Origin: Gemmatimonadales bacterium
GTDB taxonomy: Bacteria > Gemmatimonadota > Gemmatimonadetes > Gemmatimonadales > GWC2-71-9
Reading direction: 5' to 3'
NCBI GenBank assembly: GCA_025937755.1
Contig: JAICQR010000003.1
Location: 1 to 58,151 of the forward strand
Length of the DNA: 58,151 nucleotides
Shown here one piece after another: positions 18,406 through 48,947 of this stretch; within the stretch, counting starts at the first letter, position 1, and each line of letters begins with the position of its first letter. The notes under the pieces were generated by a model that saw only the letters and a program-made list of their open reading frames with translations, searched no databases and was not told the origin of the DNA. The translations under genes were made by a program, and so were the position numbers.

Positions 18406-19995
18406 ATGCGACTCCCCGTCACCCGTTCCGTCCTTGCCCGACGCGCCCTCGTTGGCGCGGTGGTGCTCGGTGTTCTTGCCGACCCGCTGCTCCGGAATGG
18501 CTACTGGGGGCTCGGGCTGGGAGTGTGGCTCGGGGCCTTCGCGGCCCTGGTGGTTGTGCTGGCTCAACAGCAGCGTCGGCGGCTCTCGGCGGAGAGCCGA
18601 CTCTGGCTTGCTGTCGCGCTGACCTTTGCCGCCTGCATGGCATGGCGCGACAGCGAACTACTCCATGCGTTCAACCTCCTGGCCATGCTCGGCGCGCTCG
18701 TCATGCTGGCCATGAGCCTCAATGCCATACCGGTGGCAGGGGTTGGCATTGCCCGGATGCGCGACCTGATCGTCTCCGGGTTCGGCACCGCGCTCGAGGT
18801 CTCGTTTGGCGCGGTGCCGCTTGCGTTCCGCGATGCCGAGCTCGGTGCCACACTGGTGCCGTCCTCCGCCGGCTTGCGGGTCACCCGGGCGCTGGCGCTC
18901 ACCACGCCCGTCGTGCTGGTGTTCGCCATGCTTCTCGCCCAGGCCGACCCGGTATTCGGATCGCTGTTCACGCTGCCGGAGCTGCAGCTCGAGGAGTTGA
19001 TGTCGCATGTCGTGATTGCGGGCTTCTTCGGCTGGGTCGTGGCCGGCTGGCTACGTCGCGCACTGCTGGCCCGGCCGATGCGCAACGATACGCATCACAC
19101 ACCGGATCGCGAGTCCGCGCTGGCGTTCAATCTGGAAGTCACCGATGTGAAGTTTGCGCTTGGCGCGCTGAACCTGTTGTTCCTCGTCTTCGTGCTGGTT
19201 CAGCTGGGCTGGCTCTTCGGGGGGGAGGATCTGGTCCTTCGCACCACCGGGCTTGGCTACGCTGAATATGCGAGGCGGGGCTTCTTCGAGCTGACCCTGG
19301 TGGCCGGGCTCCTGCTGCCGCTGCTGCTTGGTGCCCATGCCCTCATTCCATCGACCGATGGGCGCACGCTCCGACTGTTCCGCCGGCTTGCGCTTCCGCT
19401 GGTAGTCCTGCTTGGGGCCATCATGGTCTCGGCGTTTGCGCGCATGCAGCTGTACGTCCAGTACTATGGGATCTCAACCGACCGGCTGTACGCCACCGCA
19501 GTGATGGTGTGGCTGGCGATCGTGTTCGCGTGGCTGATGGCGACTGTATTGCGCTCCCGGCCGAGGAAGTTCGCCGCGGGGTTTGTGGCCAGCGGGTTCC
19601 TCGTCCTGCTTGTGCTTAACGTTCTCAATCCTGACAGGCTGGTCGCCCGGGCCAATCTGGCGCGGGGTGAGGCGGAACGAACCGGCGCGACAGGACCAGA
19701 TCCGGAGTACCTGGCGTCGCTGGGCGGCAACGCAGTTCCGCTGCTGGTGGATGCGTTGCTCGCCGGCGATCGGCCTGCCGGCGCCGATGAGGCTGGGGCC
19801 CGCTGCGCCGCTGCGCAGCGCCTGCTGGAGCGCTGGGCTGGGGAGCGTCGCGCGGAGATGACCCGCAGCTGGGCACAGTGGAACGCCGCGCGGAGCAAGG
19901 CAATGGAGGCCGTCGGATCCACTGAAGCGGCGCTGCACCGGCTGGTGGTTGCCGCCTGCCCGAACAGCATGCAGGTTATCCAGTCGAACAATTGA
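18406..19995 (+). CDS. DUF4153/DUF4173 integral membrane protein
   Basis: ADPVF, YAEYARRGFFEL, RMQLYVQYYG..RLY; many TMs. Confidence 0.8.
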   Translation: MRLPVTRSVLARRALVGAVVLGVLADPLLRNGYWGLGLGVWLGAFAALVVVLAQQQRRRLSAESRLWLAVALTFAACMAWRDSELLHAFNLLAMLGALVMLAMSLNAIPVAGVGIARMRDLIVSGFGTALEVSFGAVPLAFRDAELGATLVPSSAGLRVTRALALTTPVVLVFAMLLAQADPVFGSLFTLPELQLEELMSHVVIAGFFGWVVAGWLRRALLARPMRNDTHHTPDRESALAFNLEVTDVKFALGALNLLFLVFVLVQLGWLFGGEDLVLRTTGLGYAEYARRGFFELTLVAGLLLPLLLGAHALIPSTDGRTLRLFRRLALPLVVLLGAIMVSAFARMQLYVQYYGISTDRLYATAVMVWLAIVFAWLMATVLRSRPRKFAAGFVASGFLVLLVLNVLNPDRLVARANLARGEAERTGATGPDPEYLASLGGNAVPLLVDALLAGDRPAGADEAGARCAAAQRLLERWAGERRAEMTRSWAQWNAARSKAMEAVGSTEAALHRLVVAACPNSMQVIQSNN

Positions 19996-39785: not shown

Positions 39786-40259
39786 ATGTCTCGCCGGCAG
39801 AGGACTCATCACGCAGTATCACTCGTGCTCGCTCTCGCAGTTGCCGCACCCGCCGCCCTGGTGGCGCAGGGCATCCCCGCCAATGCTCCGGCGCTGCGCA
39901 CGGCGTTGTCGGATCTCGCGACGCTTCGGTCCACCTACGTCGATGCCTTCAACAAGAAGGATGCGGCCGAGGTGACTTCGCTGTATGCCGATGACGCCGT
40001 CGTCATCATGGAGGATGGCACGTTGCTTAACGGCGGCCTCGAGATCCGCGCTGCCATGGCCGAAGCGGCGCCGACCTGGCCCCACGCGGTCATCGAGTCG
40101 GACACCACCCGGGTCTTCGGCAGCACCGCGGTGGACCTGGGCACATGGACCGCGCACCCGGCCGACGGCGGCGAGCTGAAGTTCCGCTACGTAACCATTC
40201 TCCGCCGGGGCCTCGACGGCTGGAAGATCACCCATGTGTCGCTGGTGCCATTGAAGTAG
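39786..40259 (+). CDS. Secreted SnoaL/NTF2-like (DUF4440) protein
   Basis: Signal peptide; AFNKKDA..LYADDA; DGWKI. Confidence 0.75.
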   Translation: MSRRQRTHHAVSLVLALAVAAPAALVAQGIPANAPALRTALSDLATLRSTYVDAFNKKDAAEVTSLYADDAVVIMEDGTLLNGGLEIRAAMAEAAPTWPHAVIESDTTRVFGSTAVDLGTWTAHPADGGELKFRYVTILRRGLDGWKITHVSLVPLK

Positions 40260-40313
40260 GAAGTGGGGAGTGGGAAGTGGAGGGGTGTTCTTCCCACTTC
40301 CCACTTCCCACTT
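40254..40313. repeat. Inverted heptamer arrays (RAGTGGG-like)x4 / (TTCCCAC)x3; possible hairpin terminator
   Basis: Read directly; contains the stop of the upstream gene. Confidence 0.8.
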
Positions 40314-40320
40314 GTAGTTC

Positions 40321-40342
40321 TGTCGCTCCCCCGTTGTAAGTT
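40321..40342 (+). promoter_or_regulatory. PafBC (RecA-NDp)-like promoter
   Basis: TGTCGC-N10-TAAGTT compared with consensus TGTCGG-N10-TANNNT; ATG follows after 7 nt with no SD. Confidence 0.65.
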
Positions 40343-40349
40343 GCCGGTA

Positions 40350-43300
40350 ATGCACCGCACCCTCGCACATCTGATGCAGATCGACCGCTCCTGGCCCATG
40401 GCCAGGAAGCTGCTGGTCGGCCCCGACCTGGGCTGGGGCCGCGAAGTGCTCTGCCTGCTGGCCCGTGATCTGGGAGGCTGGGTGGGCTGGGAAGCGGTGA
40501 CGCCGAAAATGCTGGCGGGAGAGCTGGCGTTCACGGCGATCGCCGACTCGGGCTATCGCGCCGGTACCGACCTCGAAATCGAGGCGGTATCCGAGGCTGC
40601 GCTGGACGCCGCGATCGCTGCGGGCGCGCTTCAGGGTTCGCTCGCGGCCCTGGCGCAGCGTCCCGGGATCCGGACCGCGGTCCATGATGCCATCCAGAAC
40701 CTGCGGATGTCGGGCCTCGGCGTCGACCAGGTGGCCAAGCGCGCCCCCGCGGGGACCACGGCCACGGATCTGGCCCGGATACTCGGTCACTACGTCGGGA
40801 CCCTCAGGGAGCGGCACCTGATTGACCCTGCCGACATCTTCCGATTCGGGCTGCAGGAGTTCGAGGTCGAGGCGCCGTATGTCCTGCCGCCGTTGGTGCT
40901 GGTGGCCGGCGATCTCTCGCTGCGCGGGCTCAGGGGCCAGTTCGTCCTGAAGCTGCTGTCCAAGGGGGCCGTCGGTCTCGATTCCGGGCCGGCACGGAAG
41001 GAGAATCCGCCGCTGACGGTTGCCTTCCAGACCCCGCTTGATCCCATGATGGAGCTGGAACAGCGGTCCACGCCCCGGCTCTTCGCCGCCACCACACCCA
41101 CCATCGAGTTGCGCGAGGCGCTGCGCCGTGCGATGGCAGACGGCTTCGCGTGGGGCGACGTCGAGATTGCCGCGACCGATGAAGATCTCTACGGCATCGA
41201 ACTCGAAGCGCTGACGTCGCATCTCGGAGTCCCCTGCACCTTCCGCAACGGCCTTCCTTTCGCCCGTTCGCGCATCGGCCGGGCTGTGGCGCGTTTCCTC
41301 GCGTTTCTCTCCCAAGGGCTCCCGGTCGACCTGTTGCGCTCGGCGCTGGAATCGGGCGAGCTGGCATCGCCAGATCAGCTTGTTGCTCCAGCTCGCCTGG
41401 CGAGCCGATTGAGGGAACTGAAGGTTGGCTGGGGCCGGGAGCGCCTCGAGAAGGCGCGCGATGATCTCGCGACCCCGACGACCGAGCGTATCCGCCAGCG
41501 CGAGGACGAGTCCGCCGAAGCATTCGACGCGCGGGTGGCTCGGTGGAAGGCCGAGTCCAGCGCGCTCGCCAGGTTGCTCGATTGCCTGCTGGAGTTGCTG
41601 CCGCCGGTGCCGGAGCGGGGTGATTTCAGTGACGTGCGGGTGACGCCTGCCGCGCTGGCTCGTGCAGTGCGACTCTACCTGGCCATGCTGCTCGAGGCGG
41701 AGGTGGCCGATGCCACGGCCAGGGCAGACCAGCACCTGGGCCAGCGACTGGTCGCGCGGCTGGAGCAGGTCGAGCGCCTGGGCACGGAGCTGACCACCTT
41801 CGCCGGTGCGCTGACTGAACTGCATGCGGTGCTGGAGGACCTCAGGGCGTGGCCCGAACTTCGTTCCGGGAGCGCTGGCAGTTCCGCTGGCGACGCGATC
41901 CACTTCACCGACCTTGCGCACGCGGGGCTCACCGGACGCAGGGCGACGTTCGTGGTGGGCCTCGATGCCGACCGGGTCAGCGGAGCGCGGGTGCAGGATG
42001 CCCTGCTGCCGGACAGCGTGCGCCACGCGCTCGATCCGGACGCGCTGCCTTCGCTCGCGATGCGGCAGGAAGAGCACGCCTGGAAGCTCGACCGCGCGCT
42101 GGCGCGGGTCACCGGCGCGATGACGCTTTCGTATTCGGTGCGCGGTACCGACAGCGGTAGCGCCACCGGACCGTCGCATCTCCTGCTGGACGCCTGGCGC
42201 CGCGCCGAAGGAAACGACGCGCTCGACTATGAGGGCCTGCGCGCGCACCTGGGGGAGCCAGTCTCCGCCGTGCCCTCGCATGGCGTCCGTTGTCTCGACG
42301 GTCGCGATGCCTGGCTCGCGGCCCTCTCCGACGGCCCGCTGCTGCTGGATGGCGCCGCGCAGGTGCGCGACGGCTTTCCCGCGCTCGATCGCGGGCTCCG
42401 CCTTCGCAGCGGGCTGGCGGCTCCGGTTTTCAGTCCCGTGCACGGGCTGGTCGCCGATCCCGCGGGGCTCGACCCCACCGCAAGCACCCGTCCGGTTTCG
42501 GCATCGCAGCTCGAGACCCTCGCGCGTTGCCCGCTGGCATGGCTCTACAGTTATGGAATGGGTGTCCGTCCACCGGAGGAGCCGGAGTACAACGCTGATG
42601 CCTGGCTCTCGTCGGCCGAACGGGGCTCGCTGCTGCACGAGGTGTACGAGCAATTCGGCCGGGAATATCAGGGGCGTCGCCCGGAACTGGAGTCGATGGC
42701 GGCCCGGCAGCGCGTGGAAGCCATAGCCCAGGAAAGAATAGACGCGTGGCGCGAGGACGTGCCGCCACCCAGTGAATCGGTATTTCTCGCCGAGTCGGAA
42801 GAAATCCGGCGTGCTGCGGTCGAATTCCGTTCCTGCGAGATCGAGGATCATGAGCAGACTGGTGCCGAACCGTTCGAGTTCGAGAAGGGCGTGGAGTATC
42901 GGGACGCAGTGCCGTTCGCAGTGGGTGACCGCAGCCTGACGGTGTATGGCAGGATCGACCGGGTGGACCGCCTGCCCGATGGGACGCTGCGGGTAGTGGA
43001 CTTCAAGACCGGCAGTGCGCGGCCGTACCAGGACTCGAATGGTGGCGGCCCCTTCCACGGCGGCCGCCATCTGCAGGCGGGGATCTACGCGTCCATCGCA
43101 GAGCAGCAACTCGGCGTCGCGGTGGACCGCTTCGAGTACCGCTTTCCGACCCACAAGGGCGGCAACTACATCGCCCGGTTCCTGCGCGACGAATTGACCC
43201 GTACCGCGGACGTAGTTGGAAGCCTGCTCGAGCACGTGCGCACCGGCGAGTTCGTCCCGACCACCGCAAGGGAAGACTGCACCTTCTGCGACGCGGCGCC

Positions 43301-43427
43301 CATCTGTCGCGTGAAGGTGGGCAACCACCACAAGGTCGAGTCTGTGCCCCGCGCCGACTGGGCCGCCGAGCACGCCGACTTGCTGAAAGCGTTTGACGGA
43401 ATGAATCAGCGTCGAGGAAAGCGATGA
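40350..43427 (+). CDS. addB: AddB-like subunit: degenerate helicase fold plus PD-(D/E)XK nuclease with Fe-S Cys
   Basis: SASQLETLARCP, GSLLH, GRIDRVD..VVDFKTG..LQAGIY, CTFCDAAPIC. Confidence 0.8.
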   Translation: MHRTLAHLMQIDRSWPMARKLLVGPDLGWGREVLCLLARDLGGWVGWEAVTPKMLAGELAFTAIADSGYRAGTDLEIEAVSEAALDAAIAAGALQGSLAALAQRPGIRTAVHDAIQNLRMSGLGVDQVAKRAPAGTTATDLARILGHYVGTLRERHLIDPADIFRFGLQEFEVEAPYVLPPLVLVAGDLSLRGLRGQFVLKLLSKGAVGLDSGPARKENPPLTVAFQTPLDPMMELEQRSTPRLFAATTPTIELREALRRAMADGFAWGDVEIAATDEDLYGIELEALTSHLGVPCTFRNGLPFARSRIGRAVARFLAFLSQGLPVDLLRSALESGELASPDQLVAPARLASRLRELKVGWGRERLEKARDDLATPTTERIRQREDESAEAFDARVARWKAESSALARLLDCLLELLPPVPERGDFSDVRVTPAALARAVRLYLAMLLEAEVADATARADQHLGQRLVARLEQVERLGTELTTFAGALTELHAVLEDLRAWPELRSGSAGSSAGDAIHFTDLAHAGLTGRRATFVVGLDADRVSGARVQDALLPDSVRHALDPDALPSLAMRQEEHAWKLDRALARVTGAMTLSYSVRGTDSGSATGPSHLLLDAWRRAEGNDALDYEGLRAHLGEPVSAVPSHGVRCLDGRDAWLAALSDGPLLLDGAAQVRDGFPALDRGLRLRSGLAAPVFSPVHGLVADPAGLDPTASTRPVSASQLETLARCPLAWLYSYGMGVRPPEEPEYNADAWLSSAERGSLLHEVYEQFGREYQGRRPELESMAARQRVEAIAQERIDAWREDVPPPSESVFLAESEEIRRAAVEFRSCEIEDHEQTGAEPFEFEKGVEYRDAVPFAVGDRSLTVYGRIDRVDRLPDGTLRVVDFKTGSARPYQDSNGGGPFHGGRHLQAGIYASIAEQQLGVAVDRFEYRFPTHKGGNYIARFLRDELTRTADVVGSLLEHVRTGEFVPTTAREDCTFCDAAPICRVKVGNHHKVESVPRADWAAEHADLLKAFDGMNQRRGKR

Positions 43428-46400
43428 AGCCGGAGCCGCAGGACCAGGCCGCGCGGAACCGCATCGCTGCTGATCTCGATGCAAACCTGCTGGTCGAGGC
43501 GGGCGCCGGCTCGGGCAAGACGACGGCGCTGGTGGGCCGGATGCTGGCGCTGGTGGAGCGGGGCACACCGGTGGAGCAGATCGCCGCGGTGACCTTTACC
43601 CGGAAGGCTGCCGCCGAACTGCGGGAGCGGTTCGAGGGCGAGCTGGAGCGGCGGGCCGCCACCTGCGACGAGCCGGAGACCGGTGCGCGGCTTCGCGACG
43701 CTCGGGATCACCTGGGCCGGTCATTCCTCGGCACCATTCACTCGTTCGCTGCGCGACTGCTGCGCGAGCATCCGCTCGAGGCGGGGCTGGACCCCGATTT
43801 CGCCGAAGTGCCTGAAGAGGAATGGGCCGGCATCCGGACCGAGTTCTGGCGCGGCTGGATCGAGCGCTGCCGGGTGGAGAACGATCCGGCGCTCGCCGAG
43901 CTCAGACGGCTCAACGTCGATCCCCGCGACCTTTTCGACGGGTTCCAGAACCGAGCACGGTTCCCCGACGTGAGCTTCCCCGCCCCCGATGCACTGCGGC
44001 CCGATGCAGGGCGCTGCCGCGCTGCGATCGAGGCGCTGCTGGCCCGGGCGCGGGAGCACCTGCCGCGAGAGAGCCCGGGACGAAAGTGGGATGACGCCCA
44101 GCGCTACTTCCTGCGGCTTGACCGGCTCCGCCGTAGCGGTGCCGACTGGGAAGATGTGGCGCGCTTCTGCGACGCATTGTCCGACAAGGCCGACATCAAG
44201 TTCACCATGTCGAACTGGGACATCACGGCCAGGCAGACGAAAAACGTCGCGCCGCGGGATGTGAGCCCCGTGCACGCGCTGCGCGAGGATCTGCTCGAAT
44301 TTCAGGAGACCCACGCGATTCCGCTGATCCGCGCATGGCGGGCACATCGTTATGCACCAGTGATGCGATTCATCGACCGGGCTGTTCGCGCGTTCAGCGC
44401 CCAGCGGCACGCCCGGGGAACGCTGGGCTTCGAGGACCTGTTGCAACTTGCGGCTCACCTGCTGCGACACTCGTCCGCGGCGCGTCGCCGGCTGGGCGAG
44501 CGCTATCGCCACCTGCTGGTGGATGAGTTCCAGGACACCGATCCCATCCAGGCGGAACTCTGCTTCCTGCTCGCGTCCGAGCCGGAGACCGGCGACAACT
44601 GGACCTCAGTGACACCGCGTCCCGGCGCGCTGTTCGTGGTAGGTGATCCGAAGCAGAGCATCTACCGCTTTCGTCGCGCTGATATCACCACCTACGAGCT
44701 GGTGAAGCAGTGCATCGCACGGACCGGTGCGGTACTCCAGCTCACCCAGAACTTCCGCTCGGTCGAAGCCATCGCGGGACTGGTCAACCACCATTTCCCC
44801 GGCGTCTTTCCCGAGACTGCCTCCGAGGTGCAGGCGTCGTTCGCACCGATGGTCACGACGATCACTGCCGAGCCGGCCGACGGCGTACGGCGCTTTCCGG
44901 TCCGGCCCGAAGCGAACAACAAGCAGGCCATTAACCTGGCCTGCGGCGCACAGGTGGCCACGCTCGTCGACCGGATGGTCAGCGGCGGGGGCTACCAGCG
45001 GTCCGATTTCCTGGTGCTTACCACCCAGACGGAGTCGCTGGCCAGCTATGCCAACGAACTGGCGGCTCGCAATATCGCGGTGAGTGTCACCGGTGCCGGC
45101 CTGACCGTGGGATACGAACTCGAGGAGCTGCTGGTGGTGCTGCGTGCCATCGCCGACCCCACCAACAAGGTGCTGGTGGTCGCAGCACTCGAGGGACTCT
45201 TTGCCGGCCTCACTCCGGCCGAGCTGCTCGACGCGCACCGCGGTGGAGCGCACTTCGATCTCACTGCGCCTCCTGCCGATCCATCGAGTCCCGCAGGAGT
45301 GGCGCTCGACCGGCTGCATCGCTGGTGGCGTGACTCGCAGCGGCTCCCGCCGGATGCATTGCTCGAACGGATCGTGGACGACACCGGCCTGCTGCCGCAC
45401 ACCGCGTCAGGTACCCTGGGAGACAACGCCGCAGGAGCGATTGCGGAAGTGATAGCGGTGGCGCGCAGCTCGGCGGCCAGCGGCTCGGGCAGCCTGGCGG
45501 AGGCGATGCACCGGATCGAGGCGGCGGCGGACAGCGCAGAGAGCGACGCTTCGCTTCGACCCGGCCTGCAGGATGCCGTGCGGGTGATGAATCTGCACAA
45601 GGCCAAGGGACTCGAGGCGCGGGTGGTGATTCTCGCCGCGCCGGTCAGCATGTGGACTCCGAATCCCGAAATCCATGTGAGCCGTCGGCCTGATGGCAGT
45701 GCGTTCGGTGCCATGAGCATCTGCAACGACAAGCGTGTCATCGCGGAGCCTGTTGAGTGGGATACGCTGTTCGAGCGGGAGGTCGAGTTTCTGGCCGCGG
45801 AGTTCGACCGGCTGCTGTACGTGGCCGCCTCCCGGGCCAGGCGCGAACTCTGGGTTGCCCAGCTTGAGTTCGAATTGAAGGACCGGAAGGCGGAGGACAA
45901 GTCGCTCTGGGCCCGGCTGGCGCCGGCGCTGGATCGGTTCGCCCGGGTGGAGGAAGTGGCCACCGAAGTACCGCCGGGCCGGCGCCTTGTGGAACGCGGC
46001 TCCGCAGCGATCCGTGCTGACGCCGAAGCCACCGATCACCGGAGGACGGCGGCCGCGTCGCCCCGCTGGATTCGCAATACCGTGACCCGGCTTGCCCGCG
46101 AGGAAGCCGCCGAGGCCGAGGAGCAGAAGCTGGTGCCGAGAGGCGGCCTGGGACGGGACTGGGGCACCGCCGTCCATGAATGCATCGAAGGCATGGGCCG
46201 GGGCCGGAGCGGGCCGAACCTCGAACGCTACGTGCGGGCGGTGGCGGGAAAGCACGACTTGTCGGACATCGAGACTGGACGCCTGCTGCAACTGGTGCGG
46301 CAGTTCGAGACGTCGGAAGCATGGGCCCGGCTGTCGGCAGGGGGCGAGACCAGGCAGGTCGAACTTCAGGTGGCCGCAATCGAAACCAGCGAGTCCGGCG

Positions 46401-46618
46401 TGCCGCAACTGGTCGAGGGCGTCATCGACGCGGTCGCCCAGATCGACGGAGAATGGACCGTCATGGACTGGAAAACCGACGGCGCGGACGACGCCGAGTG
46501 GGGGCGGCGCCACGAGCAGTACCAGCGGCAGGTTGACCGGTACGTTCGGGTGCTGAGCAGGCATGCCGACGGCCCGGTGACCGGTCGTGTGGTGCGGCTT
46601 CAGGCGGATGCCGGCTGA
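43424..46618 (+). CDS. addA: AddA-like UvrD/SF1 helicase with C-terminal nuclease
   Basis: AGAGSGKT, TFTRKAA, DEFQDT, VGDPKQSIYRFR, HKAKGLE, YVAASRA, GVIDAV..DWKTD. Confidence 0.88.
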   Translation: MKPEPQDQAARNRIAADLDANLLVEAGAGSGKTTALVGRMLALVERGTPVEQIAAVTFTRKAAAELRERFEGELERRAATCDEPETGARLRDARDHLGRSFLGTIHSFAARLLREHPLEAGLDPDFAEVPEEEWAGIRTEFWRGWIERCRVENDPALAELRRLNVDPRDLFDGFQNRARFPDVSFPAPDALRPDAGRCRAAIEALLARAREHLPRESPGRKWDDAQRYFLRLDRLRRSGADWEDVARFCDALSDKADIKFTMSNWDITARQTKNVAPRDVSPVHALREDLLEFQETHAIPLIRAWRAHRYAPVMRFIDRAVRAFSAQRHARGTLGFEDLLQLAAHLLRHSSAARRRLGERYRHLLVDEFQDTDPIQAELCFLLASEPETGDNWTSVTPRPGALFVVGDPKQSIYRFRRADITTYELVKQCIARTGAVLQLTQNFRSVEAIAGLVNHHFPGVFPETASEVQASFAPMVTTITAEPADGVRRFPVRPEANNKQAINLACGAQVATLVDRMVSGGGYQRSDFLVLTTQTESLASYANELAARNIAVSVTGAGLTVGYELEELLVVLRAIADPTNKVLVVAALEGLFAGLTPAELLDAHRGGAHFDLTAPPADPSSPAGVALDRLHRWWRDSQRLPPDALLERIVDDTGLLPHTASGTLGDNAAGAIAEVIAVARSSAASGSGSLAEAMHRIEAAADSAESDASLRPGLQDAVRVMNLHKAKGLEARVVILAAPVSMWTPNPEIHVSRRPDGSAFGAMSICNDKRVIAEPVEWDTLFEREVEFLAAEFDRLLYVAASRARRELWVAQLEFELKDRKAEDKSLWARLAPALDRFARVEEVATEVPPGRRLVERGSAAIRADAEATDHRRTAAASPRWIRNTVTRLAREEAAEAEEQKLVPRGGLGRDWGTAVHECIEGMGRGRSGPNLERYVRAVAGKHDLSDIETGRLLQLVRQFETSEAWARLSAGGETRQVELQVAAIETSESGVPQLVEGVIDAVAQIDGEWTVMDWKTDGADDAEWGRRHEQYQRQVDRYVRVLSRHADGPVTGRVVRLQADAG

Positions 46619-47676
46619 TGGCGGCCAAGCTGCAGCGCTGGGTGGACCTGCTGGCGGCGCTATTGCGCCACCGGTATCCCGTCTCACTCGAAGAGCTGAT
46701 GCGCGATGTCCCGGATTACCAGGGCCAGGAGCACGAGTCGATGCGCCGCAAGTTCGAGCGCGACAAGAAGGAGCTGCGCGAGTTCGGCATCCCCATCGAG
46801 ACCATCGGCGACGACGAAGGCGTCGGATACCGGCTTCGCATGCGTGACTTCTACCTCCCCTACCTCCAGCTGGTGGACGAGGAACGGGTGCCGGCCCGGC
46901 CCGGCCGGCTCCCGGGCGATCCCTGGCGTCAACTCGCGCTGCTGCAGTTCACGTCCGACGAACTGCGAGTCGTGGCGGAGGCGGCCGCACGCGTCGCGGC
47001 GCTGGGCGACCCGGCGCTGGCGTCCGACGTGCGCACCGCGCTCAGGAAGCTCGCCGTGGACCTGCCGATGGATGGCGCCGCCAGCACGGTTGAACATGTT
47101 CACGGGACCGAGCAGCACAATGCCGCCACGCTGGCGCTGCTCGGTTCGGCGGTGCAGGCCCGGAAGCGGATCACGTGTACTTATCACAGCATCGGCAGCG
47201 ATGCCCGCTCCGAGCGAAACCTCGAACCGCTGGGACTCTTCTTCCTGAGCCGGGCGTGGTATCTCGCCGCCCGGCAACCCGGCGAGAAGCTGGTGAAGAA
47301 CTTCAGGGTGAGCCGGATGTCCGGGGTGAAGGTCGGCACTCGCCCTGAGTCGCCCGACTTCGAGCGCCCTGCCGGATGGAGCCTGCAGCAGCACGCCCGC
47401 GCCCGGAGTTCGTGGGAACTGGGTGATGATGACCTCGTCGATGTGGATGTGCACTTTCTCCGGGATACTGGTGCCACCGCGGCCGCCGTGCGGCTGGGCA
47501 CGCCGGTGGAGGGCAGTCCGGATACCCTGAGATATCAGGTGCGTCGCATCGATGCGTTCGTGAGGTGGCTGCTGCCACTGGGAGATGCAGCGGAGCTGGT
47601 TGCGCCGGCGCCGGTGGTGGCGGAATGGCGCCGCCTTGCCGGGGCCACCCTCGCGGTCTATCAGGAAGCACCATGA
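46618..47676 (+). CDS. pafB: HTH-WYL-WCX regulator, PafB-like
   Basis: RRKFERDKKELREFGIPIE (PafB-type helix), RAWYLAA, FRVSRM. Confidence 0.8.
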   Translation: MAAKLQRWVDLLAALLRHRYPVSLEELMRDVPDYQGQEHESMRRKFERDKKELREFGIPIETIGDDEGVGYRLRMRDFYLPYLQLVDEERVPARPGRLPGDPWRQLALLQFTSDELRVVAEAAARVAALGDPALASDVRTALRKLAVDLPMDGAASTVEHVHGTEQHNAATLALLGSAVQARKRITCTYHSIGSDARSERNLEPLGLFFLSRAWYLAARQPGEKLVKNFRVSRMSGVKVGTRPESPDFERPAGWSLQQHARARSSWELGDDDLVDVDVHFLRDTGATAAAVRLGTPVEGSPDTLRYQVRRIDAFVRWLLPLGDAAELVAPAPVVAEWRRLAGATLAVYQEAP

Positions 47677-48629
47677 GCACCACCGCCGCCGATCAGCTGC
47701 GCCGGCTGCTCCTGCTGCTGCCTGCACTGGCCGACGACCAGGAACATTCGATCGCCCAGGTGGCGGAACAACTGGGCGTCGATCGGAAGACCTTGATGGC
47801 GGACCTGCAGGCGCTGGCCAACCGCACCGACGTGCCGGGCGGTTTCGTCGAGGGGGTTTCCATCACCATTGATGGTGAGAACCTCTCGGTCTTCAGCAGC
47901 CAGTTCCGCCGTCCGATGCGGCTCACCGTGGGCGAGCTGGCCGCGCTGGACCTGGGGCTCGCAATGCTGCGCGCGGAGCGGACGCCCGATGAGCATGCCG
48001 TGATGGAGCGCGCGCGAGCCCGGCTGGGTGAAGCGCTGGCCGAGTTGCCGGGCGACGAACCCGAGCTTCGCGTTGCCGAACTGGCCGGGCACCAGGCCGG
48101 CGCGACCAGCATTCACAAGGCGCTGCGTCAGGCGGCGCATGCGCGCCATCGCATCACCATCCACTATCGCAAGGCCGCCGATCCGGAATCGTCGTCCCGC
48201 GTGATTTGCCCCTACGGCCTCATCTTTTCCTCGGGCAGCTGGTATGCGGTGGCGCATTGCGAACGTTCGGAGGGATTGAGGGTCTTCCGTCTCGACCGGA
48301 TCGAACGGGTGGAACCGGCGGAAGGCGGATTTGAACAGCCCGACGATTTCGTCTTCGACAGCGTGATACGGGACGGCCGGGTATTTCATACCGAGGATCC
48401 GGTCGAGACCGCGGCCATCCGCTACTCGCCCCGGATCGCCCGATGGATAGCCGAGCGCGAGGGCACGGCGCTGGCCGAGGACGGTTCGCTTGTCATCGAG
48501 CATCCGCTGGGAGACGACGAGTGGGTGATCCGGCATGTGCTGCAGTACGGCCCCGATGCCGAGATTCTCGGCCCGGACCGGCTCCGCGCGCGGCTGGTGG
48601 AGCTGCTCGGCGGCATGGCAATCGGGTGA
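47673..48629 (+). CDS. pafC: HTH-WYL-WCX regulator, PafC-like
   Basis: LRRLLLLLP..AEQLGV..L.ADL, RPMRLT.GE, GSWYAVAHC, FRLDRI, LQYGPDAEILGP; ATGA overlap. Confidence 0.8.
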   Translation: MSTTAADQLRRLLLLLPALADDQEHSIAQVAEQLGVDRKTLMADLQALANRTDVPGGFVEGVSITIDGENLSVFSSQFRRPMRLTVGELAALDLGLAMLRAERTPDEHAVMERARARLGEALAELPGDEPELRVAELAGHQAGATSIHKALRQAAHARHRITIHYRKAADPESSSRVICPYGLIFSSGSWYAVAHCERSEGLRVFRLDRIERVEPAEGGFEQPDDFVFDSVIRDGRVFHTEDPVETAAIRYSPRIARWIAEREGTALAEDGSLVIEHPLGDDEWVIRHVLQYGPDAEILGPDRLRARLVELLGGMAIG

Positions 48630-48650
48630 GTGGTGGCCTTACCTTGAGGC

Positions 48651-48947
48651 ATGTCCCGCGCATTCGTGAACGACGACGCCGGCGGAGAGGCGCTGCCGGA
48701 ACACCGGTATCCGCTGCCTCCCGCTGACGACCCCGAGTACCTCGTGGCGGTGGCCCGGGCGCTGCTGGCCGGCGCCGGTGCCGGCGACTCTGCCGGCGCG
48801 GAAGAGGCCACCGGCTTCGTATTTGGCGCCCCCGAACTCACGGCCCAGGTGCAGCTGATCCGGGACGACGCCATCGCGTCGGGAGATGAGCGGCTCGAGC
48901 AACTGGCCGAGCGCTTTCTGCGACGAGCTGGAGCCGGCAAGCAGTGA
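48651..48947 (+). CDS. Small hypothetical protein with MSRAFV N-terminus
   Basis: GAGG RBS; GTGA overlap with the rhomboid gene. Confidence 0.7.
   Translation: MSRAFVNDDAGGEALPEHRYPLPPADDPEYLVAVARALLAGAGAGDSAGAEEATGFVFGAPELTAQVQLIRDDAIASGDERLEQLAERFLRRAGAGKQ

Follow-up and report, generated by a model that had tools for sequence, protein, structure and literature searches.

A candidate PafBC-type promoter at the head of an operon for an AddAB-like nuclease and a WYL-domain regulator pair in a Gemmatimonadales bacterium

A stretch of 58,151 nucleotides from a soil Gemmatimonadales bacterium (contig JAICQR010000003.1 of assembly GCA_025937755.1; "the window" is this whole stretch) carries four overlapping genes that encode AddB-like and AddA-like nuclease-helicase subunits followed by a PafB-like and a PafC-like protein, the latter two being relatives of the heterodimeric WYL-domain regulator PafBC. 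Directly before the first gene lies a bipartite site, TGTCGC and TAAGTT at a spacing of 10 bases, which has the layout of a PafBC promoter. The reading that we favor, with a probability of roughly 0.6, is that this site is a real PafBC-type promoter, that it drives the addB-addA-PafB-like-PafC-like operon, and that the encoded pair acts at it as an activator. The evidence comprises the site itself, its spacing-specific recurrence in relatives, and the subunit-by-subunit homology of the pair to PafB and PafC.

The window is contig C26 of a Gemmatimonadales metagenome-assembled genome of 2.32 Mb that is 80% complete (G000). The unbroken string TGTCGCTCCCCCGTTGTAAGTTGCCGGTAATG is read directly at positions 40321-40352 of the forward strand. 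It consists of the TGTCGC box (40321-40326), a 10-base spacer, the hexamer TAAGTT (40337-40342), which is a -10 element of the housekeeping TANNNT type, a gap of 7 bases, and the ATG of the addB-like gene (40350-40352). The published PafBC promoter consensus is given as tGTCgg(N10)tA(N3)T, where lower case denotes conservation of 50% or less (PMC8635444); the window site differs from it solely at the sixth position, one of the lower-case letters. The original prediction had described this arrangement, with exact spacing and one mismatch to the PafBC consensus, and the sequence bears it out. Lying at about -29 to -24, the box is the counterpart of the PafBC "-26 element", as judged from its sequence and from its spacing-specific enrichment in relatives, and is the proposed contact of the PafB-like subunit. 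Scans of the site for a sigma-70 consensus promoter and for Rfam families returned nothing above threshold.

The start codon at 40350 is the one chosen by a codon-usage caller trained on G000, and homology to AddB-like orthologs sets in at residues 1-5. The closest relative (G006; 71% identity in AddB) has the same first 8 residues and retains an identical box hexamer, the spacing, the -10 hexamer, and the 7-base gap. Over the 30 bases 5' of the ATG, the two genomes differ by 3 substitutions, all at positions that the motif leaves unspecified; a 4-base indel just upstream of the box leaves the distance from box to -10 unchanged. Because each of the substitutions would alter an in-frame residue, and because of the indel further upstream, these 30 bases are taken to be non-coding. 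A longer addB, beginning with the GTG at 40263, was discarded, since that start would lie inside a hairpin, codon scoring prefers 40350, and the 4-base indel of G006 falls in the added segment.

With only 7 bases between the -10 hexamer and the ATG there is no room for a Shine-Dalgarno sequence. In G000, TANNNT occurs 5, 6, 7, and 8 bases before the called starts of 34, 46, 33, and 15 genes, respectively, which makes 128 of 2032 called genes at gaps of 5-8, compared with 2-16 at other offsets. Leaderless genes are thus a common class in this genome, and the addB gap falls within their peak. The claim of a leaderless start, made from the 7-nucleotide gap and the lack of a Shine-Dalgarno sequence, fits this class, and we regard a leaderless addB mRNA as likely, with transcription predicted to start at or beside the ATG (about 40349-40350). 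Two metatranscriptome runs were available as assembled contigs only, and these cover 39909-40192, within an upstream gene of the SnoaL family, and 40503-40754, within addB; the latter contig has 8 differences in 252 bases and is probably from a related strain.

Recurrence of the site was examined upstream of addB and around PafC-like genes. The addB set comprised the 300 bases upstream of the gene in 70 Gemmatimonadota loci selected by protein homology only; relatives retrieved with the AddB-like protein are nearly all labelled Gemmatimonadales, Gemmatimonadaceae, or Longimicrobiales. Forward TGTC-N12-TANNNT has 9 matches in 8 of the 70 loci, whereas the other spacings from 6 to 19 have 0-2 and the reverse strand 0-1. 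Conservation upstream of addB orthologs, as the original prediction expected of a real promoter, was therefore found in a spacing-specific form. Three operons of the same genus with the order rmuC-addB-addA-pair (G007, G009, and G005) have the motif before rmuC, 7-8 bases from the ATG. Nine newly fetched loci hold operons that end in a PafB/PafC-like pair and have other first genes, namely a DUF2779 protein (G008 and G019), an SF1 helicase with a fused RecB-like nuclease (G015), an AddB/AddA pair of a second type (G037), and small unknown genes (G034 and the second pair of G009); the strict motif is located at the operon head in three of the nine.

A validation set of 40 loci (342 kb) around PafC-like genes was obtained by searching 201 genomes of the phylum with Pfam and had no part in defining the motif. 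It yielded 28 forward matches at N12, in 23 of the 40 loci, compared with 1-7 at other spacings and 4 on the reverse strand. In 16 of the 40 loci there is a site with its end 0-250 bases upstream of either the inferred start of the operon or the PafB-like gene, and 11 of the 28 sites read TGTCACACCC. In an alignment of 29 sites we searched for the partner half-site of a palindromic operator and found no inverted-repeat partner of the box, so that a palindrome was rejected; nor was a conserved -35 element or TTG found upstream in these sites. It is the comparative data from relatives, and not G000 by itself, that make the motif more than chance. On comparison of these sequences, we consider it well supported that addB orthologs and PafB/PafC-like operons are preceded by a conserved element of specific spacing and that this element is linked to the pair.

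Other promoter-like features were seen beside these sites. In several loci (G007, G009, G005, and G026) a CTTGCCC or CCTTGG stands about 13 bases upstream of TGTC, too distant from the -10 hexamer for a normal -35 element. A different conserved addB promoter, CTCCC-N19-TATCTT, is present in 14 of the 70 addB loci, with no match at any other spacing from 14 to 25; the loci that have it are labelled Longimicrobiales, Gemmatimonadales, or Gemmatimonadota. TATCTTG occurs upstream of addB in 17 of the 70 loci on the forward strand and in none on the reverse.

The third and fourth genes of the window's operon encode the putative regulators. The PafB-like protein (46618-47676, forward strand; 352 residues) has winged helix-turn-helix (wHTH), WYL, and WCX domains by profile and solved-structure homology, and M. 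smegmatis PafB (7p5x_AY, E 9.1e-13) ranks first among its solved full-length relatives. Its arginines align opposite R46, R50, R211, and R214 of that protein. R46 and R50 of PafB are described as reading the two guanines of the GTC triplet (PMC8635444), and the four WYL arginines as being required for binding of single-stranded DNA (ssDNA) (PMC11804915). In the Gemmatimonadales PafB-like proteins that were aligned, the RRxFERDK helix is without variation (13 of 13). By the same kinds of homology the PafC-like protein (47673-48629, forward strand; 318 residues) is of HTH_PafC-WYL-WCX architecture; its match in A. aurescens PafBC (6sj9, E 8.5e-30) is to the PafC half, and it resembles M. smegmatis PafC (9.6e-14) more closely than PafB (1e-8) and has arginines opposite R201 and R204. 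The PafB and PafC assignments thus hold subunit by subunit and both ways, as far as sequence comparison can tell. By homology and alignment, then, the operon encodes a cognate PafB/PafC-like pair with the DNA-reading arginines R46 and R50, and control of the operon by its own products is the natural reading. One relative (G009) holds two such pairs (C17:22289-24774, L182 and L203, and C5), whose PafC-like genes are 59% and 38% identical to that of the window; one pair follows rmuC-addB-addA and the other a 101-residue unknown gene, and each has its own box. Boxes of the second type of pair tend to read TGTCACACCC.

The first two genes would supply the enzyme. The AddB-like subunit (40350-43427, forward strand; 1025 residues) has a C-terminal PD-(D/E)XK domain (PDDEXK_1, E 1.3e-34), and AddB models match it weakly, far under their cut-offs. 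The AddA-like protein (43424-46618, forward strand; 1064 residues) is a UvrD-type helicase (UvrD-helicase, E 8.1e-52) with a C-terminal PD-(D/E)XK nuclease; the addA_alphas model matches it at 7.8e-60, under its cut-off. The genes overlap by 4 bases (addB/addA), 1 base (addA/PafB-like), and 4 bases (PafB-like/PafC-like), and the best explanation is that the four form one translationally coupled transcript from the TGTCGC promoter. PADLOC gave generic WYL and UvrD/GajB-type matches for the locus and no defence system model.

From these data we infer binding of the pair, activation and not repression, sigma adaptation, the ssDNA signal, and the transcription start site. In the proposed mechanism, the PafB-like and PafC-like proteins would form a heterodimer, and the HTH of the PafB-like subunit would read the GTC of the TGTCGC box. 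The absence of an inverted partner of the box agrees with a heterodimer that reads DNA through only one of its HTH domains. The ssDNA-loaded pair would then help the housekeeping RNA polymerase to initiate at a promoter without a usable -35 element; sigma adaptation at this promoter is a reasoned proposal from its geometry and from the homology of the pair. Activation is favored over simple occlusion because the distance from box to -10 is constant to the base, as expected for joint binding by regulator and polymerase. The operon would raise its own regulator along with the end-resection enzyme, and, since the regulator genes are its last two cistrons, the circuit should feed back on itself.

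Several observations weigh against this reading or narrow it. Within single genomes the motif is not in excess. TGTC[AG]-N11-TANNNT has 17 matches on both strands of G000, where base composition predicts about 32; in intergenic DNA of G000, TGTC-N12-TANNNT has 4 matches and spacings of 8-17 have 2-8; and five relatives have 6, 12, 24, 6, and 8 matches genome-wide, compared with 15, 10, 15, 8, and 11 for a reversed-pattern control. Genome-wide enrichment was thus seen neither in G000 nor in the five relatives. Because the counts do not exceed the controls, most in-genome matches are taken to be chance and the regulon to be small; the motif by itself cannot call a regulon. Nor was the expected enrichment at recA and uvr genes found, the motif being present upstream of recA in 0 of 26, lexA in 0 of 28, and uvrA in 1 of 26 regions of relatives. 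The mycobacterial PafBC regulon includes recA and most damage-induced genes (about 150), unlike the set here, which is small, consists of nucleases, and is without recA, lexA, and uvrA. The strict site is absent from 17 of the 40 validation loci and from the inferred operon head in 24 of them. A relaxed pattern, GTCRC-N10-[TG]ANNN[TA], does match 8 of the 9 newly fetched loci at N10, with 0-2 at other spacings, and was written after the data had been seen. The consensus of the 29 aligned sites is c-TGTCAC-acccc, with core columns that are circular since the sites were chosen by pattern. Strict searches fix TGTC and are circular in the same way; GTC is kept in two sites (G036 and G014) that came from a search leaving the first base free. 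Relatives are not statistically independent, and the gene calls come from a crude codon-usage caller of our own making. Lastly, the Pfam model HTH_PafC also matches proteins of E. coli, B. subtilis, Thermus, and Deinococcus, so that the label alone is no proof of PafC and the assignment depends on the pairwise comparisons described above.

The strongest competing explanation, unlikely as we judge it and yet deserving of serious weight, is that the box is a repressor operator, occupied within the spacer by the WYL pair or by some other protein, which blocks RNA polymerase until DNA is damaged. Repression in promoters is how homodimeric WYL regulators, BrxR and CapW for example, are described to act, the solved relatives of the PafC-like protein include BrxR at a weaker score (E 9.5e-6), and the box does lie inside the core promoter, where it could equally serve a repressor. 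The -10 hexamer may also suffice for transcription: TTG is lacking at the -35 place in 97 of 125 leaderless-type promoters of G000, so that a missing -35 element does not on its own call for an activator. What favors a PafBC-type activator over this explanation is that the best solved relatives of the two proteins are PafB and PafC, subunit by subunit; that the site is non-palindromic, whereas homodimeric WYL repressors use dyads; and that a base-exact distance from box to -10 (28 matches versus 1-7 in the validation set, and 9 versus 0-2 upstream of addB) is unneeded for simple occlusion.

It is improbable that the two hexamers are instead the -35 and -10 of an alternative sigma factor of the extracytoplasmic function type, or that a non-WYL regulator binds the box. 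Known sigma factors use spacers of 15-19 bases, longer than the 10 bases found here, and the -10 hexamer is the same TANNNT as in the 125 leaderless promoters; against either version, 23 of 40 independent loci have the motif clustered about PafB/PafC-like genes. That the site is an ordinary housekeeping leaderless promoter with a functionless chance TGTC would agree with motif counts at or under chance in G000 and the five relatives, and with the abundance of -10-only leaderless promoters in G000, but is very improbable, being contradicted by spacing- and strand-specific enrichment in 70 addB and 40 independent PafC-like loci and by persistence of the motif where the first operon gene and the spacer sequence differ.

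The motif also stands before other genes. The ATG of a YhaM-like HD exonuclease gene (NF010007, E 1e-38, under cut-off) is preceded by it, at a distance of 7-8 bases, in G000 (C183:688-716, L097), G006 (C13:4476), and G007 (C191:5443-5464). A small HTH gene of the Fis type lies divergent to the exonuclease gene, the start of the latter is of the leaderless type in all three genomes, and the spacer of the G007 promoter is unrelated in sequence. We regard the exonuclease gene as probably a second member of the regulon. Among the validation loci, the genes that follow the motif encode an RNase_T-type exonuclease, AddB-like and nuclease-helicase proteins, a VWA protein, and several small proteins without a Pfam match. 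In 6 of the 40 validation loci (L277, L284, L285, L291, L299, and L308) a strict site follows the pair directly and points toward the next gene. That gene encodes an RNase_T exonuclease in L277 and a VWA protein in L291, and in the other four has no Pfam match, three of these being small or cut-off open reading frames that were scanned and the fourth, in L299, one that was not.

Further strict matches in G000 we treat as unassigned or as chance: one lies before a Ser/Thr kinase gene (C31), with about 150 bases of leader between, and others are within genes. Another strict match (C36:3870-3891, L099) is in AT-rich intergenic DNA, adjoins a divergent XRE-family HTH gene, and faces the end of a 3985-base contig; the gene that it would drive falls outside the assembly. 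The one uvrA match, in G026, has its -10 just 3 bases before the ATG and, at 1 of 26, was treated as chance.

The genes without the motif have an element of their own. The direct repeat TTCG-N7-TTCG occurs upstream of lexA in 28 of 28 regions (55 matches; 0-11 at other spacings), usually as two tandem copies that overlap the -10 (for example L247, G000:C172, with lexA at 18636). It is also present upstream of 9 of 26 uvrA genes and is seen in the printed recA regions (L100-L125). To judge from this distribution, the repeat probably serves as LexA box in Gemmatimonadales; a literature search found no description of it. G000 has lexA, and recA was not found in this incomplete genome; TTCG-N7-TTCG is absent from window positions 40260-40349. 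The putative regulon of the PafB/PafC-like pair looks small, nuclease-rich, and separate from a LexA-type regulon over recA, lexA, and part of uvrA.

Upstream of the operon lies a SnoaL/DUF4440 gene (39825-40259), and a forward-strand hairpin of GGGAAGT-type heptamer repeats and their complement (40260-40313) begins right after its stop codon. Folding of 40250-40352 gives a minimum free energy of -47.9 kcal/mol (z -5.29; 0 of 200 shuffles as stable). A consensus scan found no T-tract terminator at the hairpin, the repeat part of which matches many other contigs. The hairpin is likely a transcript-end structure that separates the addB promoter from the SnoaL gene, and, because it runs to 40313, the promoter has only about 36 bases of room. 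Sub-threshold Rfam matches of the repeat hairpin to miRNA hairpins were taken as chance. Tandem repeats of 7-8 bases (GGGAAGT and others) and their hairpins stand directly 5' of many leaderless promoters in G000. On the other side, a gene of 98 residues begins at 48651, directly 3' of the PafC-like gene and followed by a rhomboid gene. A TACCTT 5 bases before its ATG (48630-48653) suggests a separate leaderless promoter, and the damage operon therefore probably ends at 48629.

In the literature consulted, PafBC with its orthologs represents the sole case of WYL regulators reported to be heterodimeric (PMC11804915), and a review lists PafBC-like proteins for the most part from Actinobacteria, Bacteroidetes, and Firmicutes and raises the question of how far the PafBC and DriD systems are conserved (PMC7617703). 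The portions of the PafBC literature consulted treat the system as mycobacterial or actinobacterial. Among the matches listed in our search, none by title concerned a WYL or PafBC-like system in Gemmatimonadota. If our reading is true, the promoter grammar of sigma adaptation extends to a phylum that is Gram-negative and distant, and a much smaller, self-contained regulon would be an easier system in which to dissect the mechanism. The damage response would be split between LexA (recA, lexA, and uvrA) and the WYL pair (end-processing nucleases), a division that could be compared with that of mycobacteria. We put forward only tentatively the broader view that the PafBC/sigma-adaptation circuit is a portable module, composed of an ssDNA-sensing pair, a promoter of the -26 type, and a DNA-end nuclease, which in Gemmatimonadota would be self-amplifying and run parallel to LexA. 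In such a module the AddAB-like enzyme would make ssDNA, the ssDNA would activate the pair, and more enzyme and more pair would result.

How the proposed circuit relates to established ones can be set out by system. It shares with LexA/SOS control of addAB-type genes the damage-inducible control of end-resection enzymes, which here is proposed, and differs from it in lacking the LexA-type box of the clade upstream of addB. Local WYL regulators, such as SiwR of M. smegmatis and BrxR and CapW of defence islands, are likewise encoded beside the genes that they control, some of them also with nuclease and helicase cargo; those are single-gene homodimers with palindromic operators, unlike the pair described here. 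DriD, whose target is a dyad, has the same wHTH-WYL-WCX architecture and is an ssDNA-sensing activator of damage genes, whereas the system here has two distinct subunits and a non-palindromic box fixed beside the -10. In Caulobacter crescentus, DriD is an SOS-independent WYL activator of didA. It is described as sensing ssDNA, activating damage genes, and binding its own promoter (PMC7617703), and as a homodimer (PMC11804915).

The closest parallel is with the actinobacterial PafBC promoters, of the RecA-NDp type known from M. smegmatis. Both have the bipartite tGTCgg-N10-tAnnnT layout with identical spacing and a GTC core, a housekeeping -10 without a -35 element, and a non-palindromic site; the gene pair keeps the GTC-reading R46 and R50 and the ssDNA-binding WYL arginines, and coexists with LexA. 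In mycobacteria adnA, an analogous helicase-nuclease gene, is reported to be exclusively PafBC-dependent (PMC8682763), so that the functional pairing is the same, the target being a two-subunit helicase-nuclease in both. The differences lie in the box consensus, which is TGTCAC(ACCC) here and not tGTCgg, in the host phylum, Gemmatimonadota, and in the many promoters here that are of the leaderless type. Genomic setting differs as well: mycobacterial pafBC lies beside pafA in the Pup-proteasome locus, whereas here the pair follows addA, and the Pup ligase was found in 0 of 5 genomes of the genus with a Pup_ligase profile that was positive in the C. glutamicum control. In mycobacteria, PafBC levels are reported to be unchanged on damage (PMC6789036); here, with the regulator genes inside their target operon, the level of the regulator should rise on induction.

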